Counted from the first letter of the stretch, positions 45,912 through 54,257 are shown. The stretch is 64,000 nt of DNA from Elusimicrobiota bacterium (GCA_035606075.1 DATNGC010000004.1:16932-80931); one strand, 5' to 3'. Notes: generated by a model from the letters alone, not told the origin. Program-made: numbers and translations.

Positions 45912-47883
45912 GGCTCGGCAAAGAGGCCCGATGATACCAATAGGAACCGAACGCCAGCAATGAGCCGAGGCTCAGCAGGACGCCCCAGCGCCAGGAGGCG
46001 GGGTCGTACTCGAAAGCGAGCGTCCAGGGCCCCGCGGGAACGGCGGCCTTGAGGAACGCGCCCATCGCCGGCCGGGTCTCCTCGGGAACTCGGCCGCCCG
46101 GCGTTTCGAGAGAGACGCTCCAGCCGGGATAGCGCGGCTCGCTGACGAAGACCCAGCCTTCGCCTTCGCCGGACACGGAGAAGCGGTCCTCGCGCTCGCG
46201 GGTCTCGGCGAGGGGCCTGCCGGCGGGCGGCGGCGAGCCGGGAAAGTCCGCGGGCAGCGCCGCGCCGGCCTTCGGCGGGAATTGATAGGCGAGCGCGACG
46301 GGCGCGGCGACGCGCGAGATGAACCACCGGTTCAAGCCCTCGGGCACGATCAGAGGGTTCGAGAGGGAGTCCGGCGTCAGCAAGCGCGACGCTCCCACCC
46401 ACGGCAGCCAGGCCTCGGCCTCCTCGGCGCTTCGCGACGAGTAGAGACGATCCATCACCGCGTAGTTCGCGGCGGGGACCAACGGTTCTCCAAAATTGCC
46501 GACGGAGCGTATCCGGTAAGGGGCGTTGCTCAGGCCGTACAGCCGCGACGCCCAATCTTGGACCCCGCTTCCGCGGACGGCCTCGAGCGCCCGGGGCGAG
46601 AGCAGGTAGCGGGTGCCGCCGAGCTTCGCCTGGAGCTCGCGCGCGAGGGACCCCGGCTCGGCGAAGACGCCGCGCGGAGCGCCGGGGATCGAGCGCGCGC
46701 CGAGGAAGACGAGCTCCGCGGCCAGCAAGGCGGCGAGCGCCGGCGCGCGGCGCGCGCGAGAGAGACCGGCGCCCACCAGCGCGGCCAGAGGGAGCGCGGC
46801 GAGGTAGGACAGGTTTCCGGGATAGCGGACGAAGCGCAGGGGCGGCAGATGCAGCCACAGCGCGCGAGAGACCGGGTTGGAGCCGCCGAGAATGAGCGCC
46901 GCGACGGCGGCGAGCATCGCGGCGAGCGCCGCGGCCCGGCGCGGGGGTAGGCGGCGCAAGGCGAGCGCGGCGGCGGCCGCGGCGGCGACGCCGACATAGA
47001 CGCACTTCCACCACTCCACGGCGGGCTTGAAGGCCGAGAGCGGCACGAACAGCGGCGACAGCCACTGGCGCAGGTCGGCGAGCGAGAAGCCGTAGCGCAG
47101 GGCCTCGTCGGCAGAGAGCCCGCCCGCGCGGCGCGACAGCGCGGCGAGCTCGAGCGCGGGAAGCAGCTGGGCGGCCGTCAGGGCGAGCGCCAGCGCCGCG
47201 GCGGCGGCCCAATCGGCGCCCCACCGGGCCGCCCCGGCGGCGTCCCGGCGCCGGGCGCGCAGCGCGAACGCGAGCGCCCAGGCGACGGCCGCCAGTCCCG
47301 GCAGGAAGGTCGGATAGCCCGCGAGGAACATCAGCGCCAGGGCCAGCGCGAGAGGTCCCCGCCTGCGGAAGAAAAGAGGCAGCGCGGGCGCCCAGGCGAG
47401 CACCGCGAGATGGTTCAGGAAGGACGCGCGTCCGATCATGAGCCCGCCGAGCGCGAACGAGATGCCCGCGCCGGCGCAGGCGCCCCAGCTCAGCCTCAGC
47501 GTGCGCAGCCACAGCGCGGCGAGCCAGCCGGCGAGGAAGTAATGCAGGAGCTGGAACAGCGCGGTCGCGGTCGCGAAGCCGAAGAGGTAGTACGCGACCG
47601 TCGGCGGGTAAAAGAGCCCGCCTTGCATCGAGGCAGCCATCGGCATGCCCAAGTACAGCGACGGCTCCCACAGCGGAGCGCGGCCCGCCTGCAGCAGCTC
47701 GGCGGGAGCGGCCCGCCACGCGGGATGCAGATAGGTCAAGTCCCCCCAGAACGGCGTGAGGCCGCGCAGCCACAAGGGGGCGAGCAAGGCCAGGACCGCC
47801 GCGAGAATGGCGGCCGCGGCCGCCGCCTCGGGACCCGCGGAGCGAGCGGTCTTCAGGCGGCCTCGGTCCGCAAGGACGGGCAT
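45898..47883 (-). CDS. YfhO-like polytopic membrane protein (second copy)
   Basis: Start estimated at the ATG at 47881-47883 (MPVLADRGRLK...). The architecture is polytopic N-terminus plus soluble C-terminus. The upstream 458 codons of the 1119-aa track ORF are out of frame and Arg-rich. The start is uncertain. Confidence 0.5.
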   Translation of the reverse strand: MPVLADRGRLKTARSAGPEAAAAAAILAAVLALLAPLWLRGLTPFWGDLTYLHPAWRAAPAELLQAGRAPLWEPSLYLGMPMAASMQGGLFYPPTVAYYLFGFATATALFQLLHYFLAGWLAALWLRTLRLSWGACAGAGISFALGGLMIGRASFLNHLAVLAWAPALPLFFRRRGPLALALALMFLAGYPTFLPGLAAVAWALAFALRARRRDAAGAARWGADWAAAAALALALTAAQLLPALELAALSRRAGGLSADEALRYGFSLADLRQWLSPLFVPLSAFKPAVEWWKCVYVGVAAAAAAALALRRLPPRRAAALAAMLAAVAALILGGSNPVSRALWLHLPPLRFVRYPGNLSYLAALPLAALVGAGLSRARRAPALAALLAAELVFLGARSIPGAPRGVFAEPGSLARELQAKLGGTRYLLSPRALEAVRGSGVQDWASRLYGLSNAPYRIRSVGNFGEPLVPAANYAVMDRLYSSRSAEEAEAWLPWVGASRLLTPDSLSNPLIVPEGLNRWFISRVAAPVALAYQFPPKAGAALPADFPGSPPPAGRPLAETREREDRFSVSGEGEGWVFVSEPRYPGWSVSLETPGGRVPEETRPAMGAFLKAAVPAGPWTLAFEYDPASWRWGVLLSLGSLLAFGSYWYHRASLPSHVPK

Positions 47884-53111: not shown

Positions 53112-54257
53112 CTATTCCCAATCCCTGTTGCGCCGCAGGGCCAGGCCGACGGCCACGCCGAAAGCCGGGCGCAGCTCCTCGGGCACCGCCGCGCCCCCGG
53201 AGACGAAGGAGAAAGGATCGAGCACGGTCACCGGGACCTTCAGCTCGCCGGACAGGTGCTTGTCGAGGTTCTTCGCGCGCGCGGTCCCGCCGGAGAGCAC
53301 GATGCGCCCGATCGCCCGGTCCGGGCCCTGCGACAGGTAGAAGTCGACGGAGCGATGGACCTCTCCGACGAGGTCCCGCGCGACCTGGCCGATGGCCTGC
53401 GAGACGCCGAGCGCCTCGCGGTTGCCGTCCGCCAGGGCCTTTTCCTTCTCGGCGGGGTCGACGATGACGCCGTACTGCTTCTTGAGCTCGTCGGCCTTCG
53501 CCGGCTCGCACTGGAACGCCTTGGCGACGGCCTTGGTCATCGTCGCGCCGGAGAGGGAGACGTCGCGCACCACGCGCGTCACGCCGTTCTCGACGATCGA
53601 GAGGTTCGTGACCATGTGGCCCAGGTTCAAATAAAGCGTGGCCGCCGCCCCTTCCTTCGGGTCGCGGATCTTCTCGTGGACGTTCTCGAGCGCGAAGCTG
53701 TCGACGTCCATGATCGCGGGCGTGAAGCCGGCGCCTTGGAGGATATCGATGCGGGCGGTCACGAGCTCCTTCTTGGCCGCGACGAGCACGGTCTCCATCT
53801 TCTTCTGCCCGTCCTCGACGATCTCGCTCAGGATGTGGAAGCCGAGCTGGACCTCGTTGATGTCGAAAGGGATGAACGGCTCGGCCTCGGTGGCCAGCGT
53901 GGCCTGGAGCTCGGTCTTGGTCAGGCGCGGGAACTTGACGTAGCGCACGATGACGGCGTTGCCGGACAGGGACGTCGCCGCGTCGCGGACGCTGGCGCCC
54001 TTCTCGACGAGGAAGGCGCGCAGCGCGTTGACCACGGCGGTCTTGCGCTCCTCCGGGGACGCGTCGGCCTTCGCGCCGATCGGGAGATGGCCCCAGGCCT
54101 TGAGCTGCAGCGCCGTCCCCTCCTGCTTGAGGAGGACGACCTTGACCGCGTAGGCGCCGATGTCCACGGCCACGACGTCCCGCGGGCCGAGGAACAGCTC
54201 CCCCAGCCCCTTCAGGGCGCCCAAGCGCGCTTTGACGACGTCCATTTTGATGGCCAT
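53112..54257 (-). CDS. pilM: Type IV pilus assembly ATPase-fold protein PilM (actin/FtsA-like)
   Basis: 381 aa. It has the actin-like ATPase fold blocks VAVDIGAYAVK and DVDSFALEN. Confidence 0.9.
   Translation of the reverse strand: MAIKMDVVKARLGALKGLGELFLGPRDVVAVDIGAYAVKVVLLKQEGTALQLKAWGHLPIGAKADASPEERKTAVVNALRAFLVEKGASVRDAATSLSGNAVIVRYVKFPRLTKTELQATLATEAEPFIPFDINEVQLGFHILSEIVEDGQKKMETVLVAAKKELVTARIDILQGAGFTPAIMDVDSFALENVHEKIRDPKEGAAATLYLNLGHMVTNLSIVENGVTRVVRDVSLSGATMTKAVAKAFQCEPAKADELKKQYGVIVDPAEKEKALADGNREALGVSQAIGQVARDLVGEVHRSVDFYLSQGPDRAIGRIVLSGGTARAKNLDKHLSGELKVPVTVLDPFSFVSGGAAVPEELRPAFGVAVGLALRRNRDWE

Follow-up and report, generated by a model that had tools for sequence, protein, structure and literature searches.

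A TPR-bearing Wzy_C glycan transferase follows pilQ across Elusimicrobiota and points to pilus-linked surface glycosylation

For Wzy_C enzymes, a protein or a lipid acceptor is hard to assign from sequence, and the main genomic clue has been adjacency to a pilin gene. Classical WaaL ligases are proteins of about 400-420 aa with a compact layout of 12 TM helices, and they are not known to carry a large periplasmic C-terminal domain. The PglL_A motif separates PglL from WaaL (PMC3643930), and a pilin gene adjoins TfpM, PilO and 21 of 31 predicted PglL homologues (PMC3643930, PMC9829042). Simple sequence comparison does not tell WaaL from the O-oligosaccharyltransferases (O-OTases) (PMC3643930), and none of the O-OTases has a solved structure (PMC12800693). 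The AlphaFold model of PglS shows 13 TM helices, with a C-terminal domain in the periplasm that spans residues 438-548 (PMC12800693). Members of a different family, the YfhO-type enzymes, use polyprenyl-P-sugars to decorate polymers or to O-glycosylate proteins (PMC12041528, PMC8035078); the streptococcal GT-C enzymes of this type O-glycosylate extracytoplasmic proteins (PMC12041528). In this study, we examined a 64-kb stretch of DNA from the almost uncultured phylum Elusimicrobiota, the whole of which we refer to as the window, and describe a different clue: a TPR-bearing glycan transferase encoded within the pilMNOPQ operon across very divergent genomes.

The pil genes and the gene that follows them are arranged as listed here, with positions counted from the first letter of the window.

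53112..54257, minus strand: pilM, the first gene of the operon (381 aa; Pfam PilM_2, E=1.3e-53)
52566..53111, minus strand: pilN (181 aa; Pfam PilN, E=8e-13)
52018..52563, minus strand: pilO (181 aa; Pfam PilO, E=5e-26)
51524..52021, minus strand: ORF at the pilP position (165 aa; weak PilP match, E=0.028)
49321..51504, minus strand: pilQ secretin (727 aa; Pfam Secretin, E=6e-51; NCBIfam TIGR02515, 279 bits)
47853..49313, minus strand: Wzy_C / WaaL-fold glycan transferase with C-terminal TPR (486 aa; Pfam Wzy_C, E=1.7e-11)
48465..48509, minus strand: catalytic-loop motif H-Q-x9-G-x2-Y (HQYFLETAAERGWPY) of this protein, codons 269-283 (regular expression H[NSQ]x9Gxx[GTY])
47856..48146, minus strand: TPR domain of this protein, codons about 390-486, roughly 110 aa (family profile and AF2 model)

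Within the PilMNOPQ subcomplex, PilM, PilN, PilO and PilQ were recognised by Pfam or NCBIfam models and PilP by its position together with the weak match; related loci also carry an ORF at the PilP position. PilQ has AMIN, N0/STN, Secretin_N and Secretin domains. An earlier reading of this DNA, made from the sequence alone, had correctly placed the end of pilQ at 49321 but put the next gene 8 bp downstream; the Wzy_C-TPR gene starts with GTG at 49313, which leaves a gap of 7 nt. No terminator-like site was found at the pilQ/Wzy_C-TPR junction. Further on, the Wzy_C-TPR gene overlaps the next gene, X, by 31 nt, and the other junctions inspected in the module overlap by 4 nt. The earlier reading was right in its gene calls and in proposing that the pil operon runs on into a glycosylation module, and the best explanation is that pilMNOPQ heads a single long operon whose following genes form an extracytoplasmic glycan-transfer module that would act jointly with the type IV pilus machinery.

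The fusion of Wzy_C to TPR expected after pilQ was recovered, the former as a Pfam match and the latter by family profile and model. Against PF04932 the protein scores 44.6 bits (cut-off 31.7), which assigns it to the superfamily, and 60 of 60 family members match Wzy_C as well. There are 183 relatives at E<=0.001; among the best 120 of these 183, every named one belongs to Elusimicrobia or Elusimicrobiota. The catalytic loop of this inner-membrane enzyme is intact: across 60 sequences its G280 never varies, and conservation reaches at least 90% for H269, Q270 and Y283. Structure prediction, which the sequence-only reading had suggested as a check, yielded a WaaL fold followed by a TPR domain (AlphaFold, AF2; pLDDT 92.4). 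The best and only significant fold match of this model is WaaL (PDB 7TPG; Foldseek E=3.3e-5, 418 columns, TM about 0.45), at a sequence identity of about 19%. Because four TM helices follow the catalytic loop in the model, the fourth being 347-370, the C-terminal TPR domain is predicted to be periplasmic. In the window copy this tail falls below the Pfam threshold; the profile of the family finds designed TPR proteins at E=1e-8, and the modelled domain superposes on the TPRs of CTPR and OGT with an rmsd of about 3 Å.

Such a fold speaks for the main rival to a protein acceptor, a serious if tentative possibility: that the protein is a lipid-acceptor ligase, either a housekeeping WaaL O-antigen ligase or a TacL-like glycolipid or inositol-lipid ligase. 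With WaaL it shares the fold (7TPG as sole significant match), the H[NSQ]x9Gxx[GTY] motif and the adjoining glycan-synthesis genes. It differs from WaaL in its pilus-operon setting, in having three paralogues in the window, and in its layout, which is not the compact 12-TM one: a fourth, extra TM helix follows the catalytic loop and leads to the roughly 110-aa TPR domain, a predicted periplasmic C-terminal part that is not known from classical WaaL.

In that last respect it resembles the PglS model, which also has an extra TM helix and a periplasmic C-terminal domain of roughly 110 residues (PMC12800693; both modelled). Further likenesses to PglL and PglS of Neisseria and Acinetobacter are the Wzy_C core, the conserved His and Arg residues, the link to type IV pili and, presumably, the use of Und-PP-linked glycan. 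Unlike these enzymes, the Wzy_C-TPR protein is without PglL_A, carries a true TPR C-terminal domain, is about 60-120 residues shorter, and is encoded after pilQ and not after a pilin or comP gene. In size (about 460-490 aa) and in its Wzy_C domain it is like TfpO (PilO) and TfpM, and a dedication to type IV pili (T4P) is plausible; to our knowledge, no TPR domain has been described in TfpO or TfpM. Whereas TfpM and, as described, PilO/TfpO are encoded beside their cognate pilin (PMC9829042, PMC3643930), which is the position of the validated pilin-specific O-OTases, no pilin lies within 10 kb here in 46 species loci.

The label "PglL/PilO-type" given to this protein by the sequence-only reading is thus unsupported, because both the PglL_A motif and a nearby pilin gene are missing. 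Of the profile comparisons it had proposed, the one with Wzy_C succeeded and the one with PglL_A (PF15864) did not: the window protein gave no match up to E=10, nor did any of ten family members scanned singly up to E=1; the 25 families listed, out of 28 matched by 60 members, do not include it, and 10 distant relatives gave no match at E<=0.01. The domain Wzy_C_2, which we take to be the C-terminal domain of PglL/PglS-type enzymes, is weakly matched by 7 of the 60 members (best E=3.9e-5) and by none of the 10 scanned singly; in the model, the corresponding place is taken by a TPR domain. The pilin gene that was to be sought, recognised by the type IV pilin N-terminal motif, was found neither in the 64-kb window nor in the ±10 kb covered at each of the 46 species loci of Elusimicrobiota.

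What is new here is that the pilQ to Wzy_C-TPR junction is conserved across Elusimicrobiota. Among 44 informative species loci of Elusimicrobiota, 43 have pilQ directly upstream of the Wzy_C-TPR gene; the same junction occurs in 6 of 7 distant relatives (GC 0.39-0.56) and in 32 of 33 informative metagenome loci anchored on PilM (GC 0.33-0.70), all loci that bear a name coming from one phylum and the rest being unclassified MAGs. Since it recurs in all three sets, the adjacency is not due to chance. Where measured, identities in the distant relatives are 25-27% for Wzy_C, 34-37% for PilM and 34-44% for PilQ. Being conserved across the phylum, the link to the pilus machinery is much stronger than this sequence alone could tell, and the conserved arrangement points to a pilus-linked surface glycosylation system.

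That the adjacency might be neutral, inherited gene order of no functional meaning is a reading we regard as improbable. The named loci do share a single phylum, and in the high-GC clade the whole neighbourhood is syntenic, including an inositol-phosphate/CDP-alcohol cluster on the other side of pilM; nevertheless, what precedes pilM and what comes after GT4 varies between clades, and the junction survives where everything outside these two genes has been replaced. The spacing is also close or even negative, with stop-to-stop distances that run mostly from -115 to +178 nt. A lipid ligase likewise leaves unexplained why the junction is kept at 25-27% identity and over a GC range of 0.33-0.70 while the flanks change. 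The low-GC relatives examined, in which the inositol cluster and the genes X and Y are absent, still keep pilQ followed by Wzy_C-TPR.

In these low-GC relatives, Wzy_C-TPR is present as a tandem pair of genes, and between pilQ and the first of the pair three of the relatives have an extra, separate TPR ORF of 174-197 aa. When the Wzy_C-TPR tails of one locus (L063) are compared with TPR families, the pilotin-type family PilW (TIGR02521) comes out in first or second place (E=5e-17 and 1e-14). Together with the conserved place right after pilQ, and with the lack of Wza/Wzc-type export genes among the window ORFs scanned, these features are compatible with a protein that works mainly with the secretin: its TPR would dock on PilQ or PilP, in the manner of pilotins with TPRs (PilF/PilW/Tgl) or of the BcsC/PgaA/AlgK TPR scaffolds, and it would either polymerise a glycan in a Wzy-like manner that leaves through or decorates PilQ, or aid secretin assembly. 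This is unlikely. The cross-matches of TPR profiles are promiscuous and far under the family cut-offs (62 vs 154 bits), secretin-mediated glycan export has no known precedent, and the catalytic residues are conserved, for which reason we consider the enzymatic function to be primary.

The module that follows the Wzy_C-TPR gene, and the variable region beyond it, comprise these genes.

45898..47883, minus strand: X, GT-C glycosyltransferase of YfhO-like architecture (661 aa; frame by GC3; Foldseek)
44004..45911, minus strand: Y, paralogue of X (635 aa; BLASTP vs X, E=4e-16, 41% over the N-terminal 185 aa)
43021..44007, minus strand: MprF-type flippase-like membrane protein, UPF0104 (328 aa; LPG_synthase_TM PF03706, E=8.5e-40)
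42002..43024, minus strand: class I SAM methyltransferase with a Trm112p-like zinc ribbon (340 aa; Pfam)
40875..42005, minus strand: GT4 glycosyltransferase (376 aa; Pfam)
39736..40878, minus strand: wecB-type UDP-GlcNAc 2-epimerase (Pfam Epimerase_2, E=1e-103)
36703..38646, minus strand: AsnB-family amidotransferase (Pfam; semi-conserved downstream block)
31630..33123, minus strand: Wzx-type flippase (Pfam Polysacc_synt)

The order described earlier, two GT-C genes, UPF0104, methyltransferase, GT4 and wecB, is present in full and co-directional on the minus strand. An ORF at 45770-47773, considered as the first GT-C gene, is a wrong-frame shadow by GC3; the true gene is 45898-47883. The fold of X and an acidic residue in its first extracytoplasmic loop identify it as a GT-C enzyme: its AF2 model (pLDDT 83.9) matches AftD in Foldseek (E=5e-10), then STT3, AglB, Pmt4, ALG12 and PimE, and D48, within FWGDLTYLH, is invariant. 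In both X and its paralogue Y, the latter missing from some relatives, the first periplasmic loop bears a conserved Asp, and a beta-sandwich lies at the C-terminal end together with a last TM helix. These features and the GT-C fold are shared with the YfhO family (B. subtilis YfhO, streptococcal PgtC2 and PgfM1) and with TfpW of P. aeruginosa, a GT-C enzyme that glycosylates pilins. Unlike YfhO systems, X and Y do not reach the gathering score of Pfam YfhO (PF09586; E=0.077 and 0.23, 10-12 bits vs 28.5), the conserved core holds no GtrB-type GT2, and both genes are absent by gene table from the low-GC relatives examined. A few homologues do have a precomputed PF09586 match. The methyltransferase is the most conserved module protein, with about 51-79% identity in a tblastn comparison. 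The variable part starts at wecB, which follows GT4 in only a few relatives; in the downstream flank examined, the AsnB-family amidotransferase occurs in 24 related loci and the Wzx-type flippase in 20, the latter right after GT4 in two of them (L002 and L003).

Several of these genes bear on the lipid-ligase alternative, under which GT4 would make or extend a lipid acceptor, the MprF-like protein would flip it, the GT-C enzymes would extend it as in mycobacterial PIM/LM/LAM, and the ligase would add a Wzx-flipped glycan; co-transcription with pilMNOPQ would then mean co-regulated outer-envelope biogenesis with no shared substrate. The flippase-like protein belongs to the MprF lipid-flippase family (TIGR00374 at 41.4 bits, slightly below the 43.2 cut-off); a protein of this type would fit a route through a glycerolipid better than one through a protein. 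The best PDB sequence matches of GT4 are BshA and PimB', then PimA, MshA and WaaG, and for X the nearest fold match is AftD, PimE being among the others. The inositol cluster, syntenic across pilM in the high-GC clade, contains an inositol-P synthase and a CDP-alcohol transferase. Likenesses to the mycobacterial route from PI through PIM to LM/LAM, and to TacL-type lipoteichoic-acid ligation, thus include these two enzymes, the PimA/B-like GT4, a flippase step, the AftD/PimE-like GT-C extension and a Wzy_C ligase; set against this, the likeness is one of parts rather than demonstrated orthology, the inositol genes are missing in the low-GC relatives examined, and it is pil genes that stand at the head of the operon. 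In one relative (L035), the Wzy_C-flippase-methyltransferase-GT4 set lies beside, and divergent from, bamA-skp-lpxC-lpxA, with no pil genes within 10 kb upstream of the module, and in the window bamA (from 62776) is 8.5 kb from pilM. The pairing of a conserved ligase with variable glycan genes is also like that of LPS loci.

The window holds further Wzy_C and GT-C proteins.

5447..8116, minus strand: distant Wzy_C-TPR paralogue (889 aa; Pfam Wzy_C, E=2e-16, plus TPR)
11120..12832, minus strand: distant Wzy_C paralogue with a weak TPR-like tail (570 aa; Pfam Wzy_C, E=8e-13)
9898-11151: PMT_2 GT-C candidate
20609-22708: GT-C candidate with a weak PMT_2 match

Both extra Wzy_C-TPR paralogues that had been pointed out are real, but they are distant from the pilQ-linked gene: the first has only weak similarity to it, and the second, whose TPR is weak, has an H-S-x9-G motif and aligns with it at E=3e-7 (BLASTP). 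With three paralogues in the window, not all of its Wzy_C proteins can be a single LPS ligase. The count of five GT-C enzymes was too high, four candidates having been verified (X, Y and the two PMT_2 proteins).

Our main reading, to which we give a probability of roughly 40%, is that the acceptor is a pilus-associated protein, a pilin or another T4P component, served by an O-oligosaccharyltransferase-like system that would be encoded with the pilus machine and not beside one pilin gene. At the cytoplasmic face, GT4 together with the variable genes further downstream would assemble a lipid-linked glycan, the methyltransferase would methylate it, and Wzx and/or the flippase-like protein would move it to the periplasmic side, where X and Y may decorate it from polyprenyl-phosphate sugars. 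The WaaL-like enzyme would then pass the glycan en bloc to an acceptor that the periplasmic TPR domain may select or hold. For a protein acceptor we count the operon structure, the fold and motif, the topology, the weak Wzy_C_2 matches, the conservation of the junction while the flanks vary, the precedent of YfhO-family enzymes that O-glycosylate extracytoplasmic proteins (PMC12041528), and the three Wzy_C paralogues in the window. Against it stand the lack of PglL_A and of a nearby pilin, the nature of the only solved structural relative, WaaL, as a lipid-acceptor enzyme, the position of the L035 module beside lpx genes, the nearness of bamA in the window, and the N-terminal linkers of PilQ, which are Ala/Pro-rich and not Ser/Thr-rich. 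A bolder variant, which we hold to be unlikely, would build the Wzy_C-TPR enzyme physically into the pilus machine, with the TPR docking on PilP/PilQ and glycan transfer taking place at the machine, so that pilins would be glycosylated during polymerisation or the glycan handed to or through the secretin.

If a pilus-associated protein is indeed the acceptor, the Wzy_C-TPR enzymes would form a new class of O-OTase, machine-associated and TPR-bearing, with possible use in glycoengineering, and Elusimicrobiota pili would be glycosylated. Docking of the TPR on PilP/PilQ, if true, would amount to a mode of pilus-coupled glycosylation or export without described precedent. Were the acceptor a lipid, the completion of LPS or of a lipoglycan would be co-transcribed with secretin biogenesis. 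With either acceptor, the conserved gene pair offers a testable handle on the envelope biology of Elusimicrobiota, with more than 100 orthologues available for experiments.

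The gene calls bear out the claim of the sequence-only reading that the pil operon runs, through tight same-strand junctions, into glycosylation genes. The high GC of the window (~0.55-0.74) produces many long shadow ORFs, so gene frames were set by third-position GC, with the following result:

53112-54257, minus strand: pilM
52566-53111, minus strand: pilN
52018-52563, minus strand: pilO
51524-52021, minus strand: ORF in the pilP position
49321-51504, minus strand: pilQ
47853-49313, minus strand: Wzy_C protein
45898-47883, minus strand: X, a GT-C protein
44004-45911, minus strand: Y, a paralogous GT-C protein
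43021-44007, minus strand: LPG_synthase_TM flippase-like protein
42002-43024, minus strand: Trm112-methyltransferase
40875-42005, minus strand: GT4
39736-40878, minus strand: wecB

The pilQ and Wzy_C genes are close and on the same strand as proposed, but 7 nt rather than 8 lie between the pilQ stop and the GTG that opens the Wzy_C gene. The Wzy_C gene and X share 31 nt, and 4-nt overlaps occur at the remaining junctions read. Scanning for promoters and terminators, with a promoter model that may not be that of the phylum, found no terminator-like site or other signal at the pilQ junction. Both expected GT-C genes are present, though the frame of X had to be corrected: an ORF at 45770-47773 (minus strand) was rejected as a shadow in the wrong frame (GC of 0.87/0.74/0.60 at its three codon positions). 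Downstream of this pair, the flippase-like protein, methyltransferase, GT4 and wecB are co-directional, as had been described.

The linkage was tested in three ways, with Wzy_C as anchor in species-representative genomes, by profile search, and with PilM as anchor in metagenome contigs. The first yielded 46 Elusimicrobiota loci (40-72% identity), in 43 of which tblastn placed pilQ immediately upstream of the Wzy_C gene; for two no sequence was available on that side, and L035 is arranged differently. Genes typically run pilMNOPQ-Wzy_C-X-(Y)-flippase-like-methyltransferase-GT4, with Y, the methyltransferase or GT4 missing from some loci within the available sequence. The profile search of 1.84 billion representatives returned full-length relatives down to E ~1e-17. 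All ten distant relatives scanned combine Wzy_C with TPR, and of the seven with readable gene context, six have pilQ upstream (P0356, P0344, P0329, P0335, P0301, P0340), the seventh (P0376) having a WecA-type transferase on one side and genes for fatty-acid synthesis on the other. Identity in the four distant loci measured is 25-27% for Wzy_C, 34-37% for PilM and 34-44% for PilQ, GC is 0.39-0.56, and the genes upstream of pilM differ where visible. The five with readable downstream genes carry two tandem Wzy_C-TPR genes and then GT4, with a Trm112-type methyltransferase in three and X/Y and the flippase-like gene in none. Anchoring on PilM recovered relatives at 39-90% identity, and a Wzy_C-family ORF directly follows pilQ in 32 of the 33 loci (GC 0.33-0.70) that include pilQ and extend 1.2 kb or more beyond it. 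Contigs bearing a taxonomic name are all Elusimicrobia/Elusimicrobiota or unclassified 'bacterium' MAGs. As the junction is conserved in all three surveys, it is an operon feature of the phylum rather than a peculiarity of a single genome; chance adjacency was rejected. That so tight a junction was kept across this divergence while both flanks were replaced argues for a functional tie of the Wzy_C-TPR gene to the pilus machinery, which on these sequence comparisons is probable; neutral synteny of the two genes would be the least likely reading, and a very improbable one.

Several relatives depart from the usual arrangement. In the sole PilM-anchored exception (L082:2249-6616), an X-type GT-C gene directly follows pilQ and no Wzy_C gene is found there. 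The low-GC loci L058, L060, L061, L063 and the P0356 contig have pilQ followed by tandem Wzy_C-TPR genes (~550-565 aa and ~700-720 aa) instead of Wzy_C and two GT-C genes. Between pilQ and the first of these lies, in three cases, an ORF of 174-197 aa with weak TPR matches (L063:7414-8007, L060:5370-5894, L058:821-1354), which might encode a pilotin-like protein. Some metagenome relatives have an extra Wzy_C-family ORF that closely precedes pilM and shares its strand (L119:7647-9767, L127:1-603, L132:3-1712).

The Wzy_C protein matches Pfam Wzy_C (E=1.7e-11), with no other Pfam family above threshold and no match in an NCBIfam scan, and its named close homologues, among the best 120 of 183, are all Elusimicrobia/Elusimicrobiota. 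A motif common to 20 aligned orthologues, AHQxxLETAAERGWPY, agrees with the WaaL-type H[NSQ]x9Gxx[GTY] (residues 269-283). Searched against PDB sequences, the family profile recovered TPR proteins only, designed and natural (positions 429-485, E down to 1e-8), and not WaaL. Structure prediction, proposed earlier as a check, gives a WaaL fold with a TPR domain: the only significant membrane-domain match in the PDB of the AlphaFold model (60 sequences; pLDDT 92.4, pTM 0.91) is the WaaL O-antigen ligase 7TPG (E=3.3e-5, TM-score ~0.43-0.50, 418 columns), and TPR domains superpose on the last ~110 residues at ~3 Å. The catalytic loop (219-280) is followed by four TM helices (281-297, 300-315, 322-340, 347-370), and the predicted cytoplasmic helix ends are enriched in Lys and Arg, as counted by hand, an automatic loop-segment count being uninformative with charges sitting at helix ends. 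Because these four helices follow a loop that is periplasmic in WaaL, and given the Lys/Arg pattern, the TPR domain is inferred to lie in the periplasm. From fold and motif it follows that the enzyme would transfer a lipid-linked glycan en bloc in the periplasm; whether to protein or to lipid does not follow from them. A role of this TPR-bearing protein in secretin docking, or as a polymerase, ranks third among the readings and is unlikely.

The protein had been labelled PglL/PilO-type, that is, a pilin O-oligosaccharyltransferase (O-OTase). Simple sequence comparison cannot separate WaaL from O-OTases, and the PglL_A motif was designed to tell PglL from WaaL (PMC3643930). A pilin gene adjoins 21 of 31 predicted PglL homologues, and likewise TfpM and PilO (PMC3643930, PMC9829042). 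PglL_A was absent from the window protein (E≤10), from ten members scanned individually (E≤1) and from ten distant relatives (E≤0.01), and was not among the 25 listed of 28 families matched by 60 Wzy_C family members. Wzy_C_2, which we take to be the C-terminal domain of PglL/PglS-type enzymes, was weakly matched by 7 of these 60 (best E=3.9e-5); scanning ten members picked to locate such matches caught none, and none was found in the ten distant relatives. The pilin N-terminal motif was absent from the 64-kb window and from the 10 kb on either side in all 46 species loci, the one real pilin in the scan of the window and loci L001-L056 belonging to a Proteobacteria outgroup locus. With neither a PglL_A match nor a pilin gene nearby, the label was not upheld. 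PilQ was considered as a glycosylation target and rejected, its linkers being Ala/Pro-rich, with 8-18% Ser+Thr and no convincing O-glycosylation tract.

X is identical to the NCBI entry 'MAG TPA: hypothetical protein VN915_00620 [Elusimicrobiota bacterium]' and paralogous to Y (E=4e-16). In the model of X (pLDDT 83.9), a multi-TM N-terminal part is followed by a C-terminal beta-sandwich and one last TM helix, and the best PDB matches are GT-C glycosyltransferases (AftD, E=5e-10, then STT3, AglB, Pmt4, ALG12, DPY19, PimE). The first-loop Asp of X (D48) is invariant in 50 orthologues. A Pfam YfhO match is below threshold in X and Y and present in some orthologues; YfhO-family enzymes act in teichoic acid decoration or in O-glycosylation of extracytoplasmic proteins at Ser/Thr-rich regions (PMC8035078, PMC12041528). 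The sequences closest to GT4 are BshA, PimB', PimA, MshA and WaaG.

Divergent from pilM, 54582-61663 (plus strand) encodes a HAD phosphatase, an NTP-transferase, a very conserved uncharacterised 280-aa protein, a class-III aminotransferase, a GFO/IDH/MocA oxidoreductase, a CDP-alcohol phosphatidyltransferase (closest to AF2299, IPCT/DIPPS and PIP synthase) and myo-inositol-1-phosphate synthase. This cluster resembles a pathway for phosphates or lipids of inositol or aminoinositol and is syntenic on the far side of pilM in the high-GC clade only. Together with the PimB'-like GT4, the lipid-flippase-like protein and the AftD/PimE-like GT-C enzymes, the cluster is reminiscent of lipoglycan pathways. 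In the Elusimicrobia MAG locus L035 (3251-14579), the Wzy_C-flippase-methyltransferase-GT4 set is divergent from bamA-skp-(ORF)-lpxC-lpxA, and the locus sequence available contains neither pil genes nor X/Y. The window itself has bamA, with POTRA repeats, starting at 62776 and running off its right end (62776-63999, plus strand). L035, bamA, the inositol cluster, the PilQ linkers and the missing PglL_A and pilin argue against a PglL/TfpO-type pilin OTase. The L035 hint, bamA, the inositol cluster and the lipoglycan-like parts also favour a ligase for LPS or lipoglycan, with lipid as acceptor, a tentative reading that comes close behind glycosylation of pilus-associated proteins. The latter, at roughly 40%, is the single most likely reading, and would explain the pilQ linkage, the periplasmic protein-interaction domain and the PglS-like topology. 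The published AlphaFold model of PglS shows 13 TM helices, with residues 438-548 forming a C-terminal domain in the periplasm, and O-OTases are stated to lack a solved structure (PMC12800693); the modelled Wzy_C protein has a similar topology, its C-terminal domain probably periplasmic after an extra TM helix. The lack of a nearby pilin gene would also fit glycosylation of pilus-associated proteins, provided that many pilins are substrates.

A large glycan locus, which appears variable between relatives, occupies ~5.4-39 kb of the window, with GT2 and GT4 genes, two PMT_2-type GT-C candidates, many methyltransferases, a radical-SAM enzyme, an AsnB-like enzyme and Wzx. The two further Wzy_C paralogues claimed for it (5447-8116, 11120-12832) are both there, resembling the pilQ-linked gene in the Wzy_C motif and TPR-like tail only; of five claimed GT-C enzymes, only four candidates were verifiable. 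At 8147-11151 and 20609-24332, GT2 genes adjoin PMT_2-type candidates as GtrB/GtrC- or ArnC/ArnT-like pairs, which could be a source of polyprenyl-P-sugar decorations. Between the AsnB-like gene and wecB, a DUF3800 gene (38935-39666, minus strand) sits in a low-GC (0.55) island within a GC dip at 38-40 kb; the island looks like an insertion, since Wzx or AsnB closely follows GT4 in many relatives. Two adjacent PmbA/TldD-family genes (1791-5472, minus strand) lie at the left end.

A literature search found no paper in which a pilMNOPQ operon runs on into an O-antigen-ligase-like gene and none on pilus glycosylation in Elusimicrobia; a full-text search returned nothing on pilMNOPQ with O-antigen ligase, or on TPR with O-antigen ligase and pili. 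The parts are already known, namely the Wzy_C/WaaL fold, TPR, GT-C, GT4 and the MprF-like flippase. What is new is their arrangement, in which the type IV pilus alignment/secretin operon includes a gene for a Wzy_C enzyme with TPR across a phylum, and the conservation of the junction between pilQ and the Wzy_C gene is the main new result.
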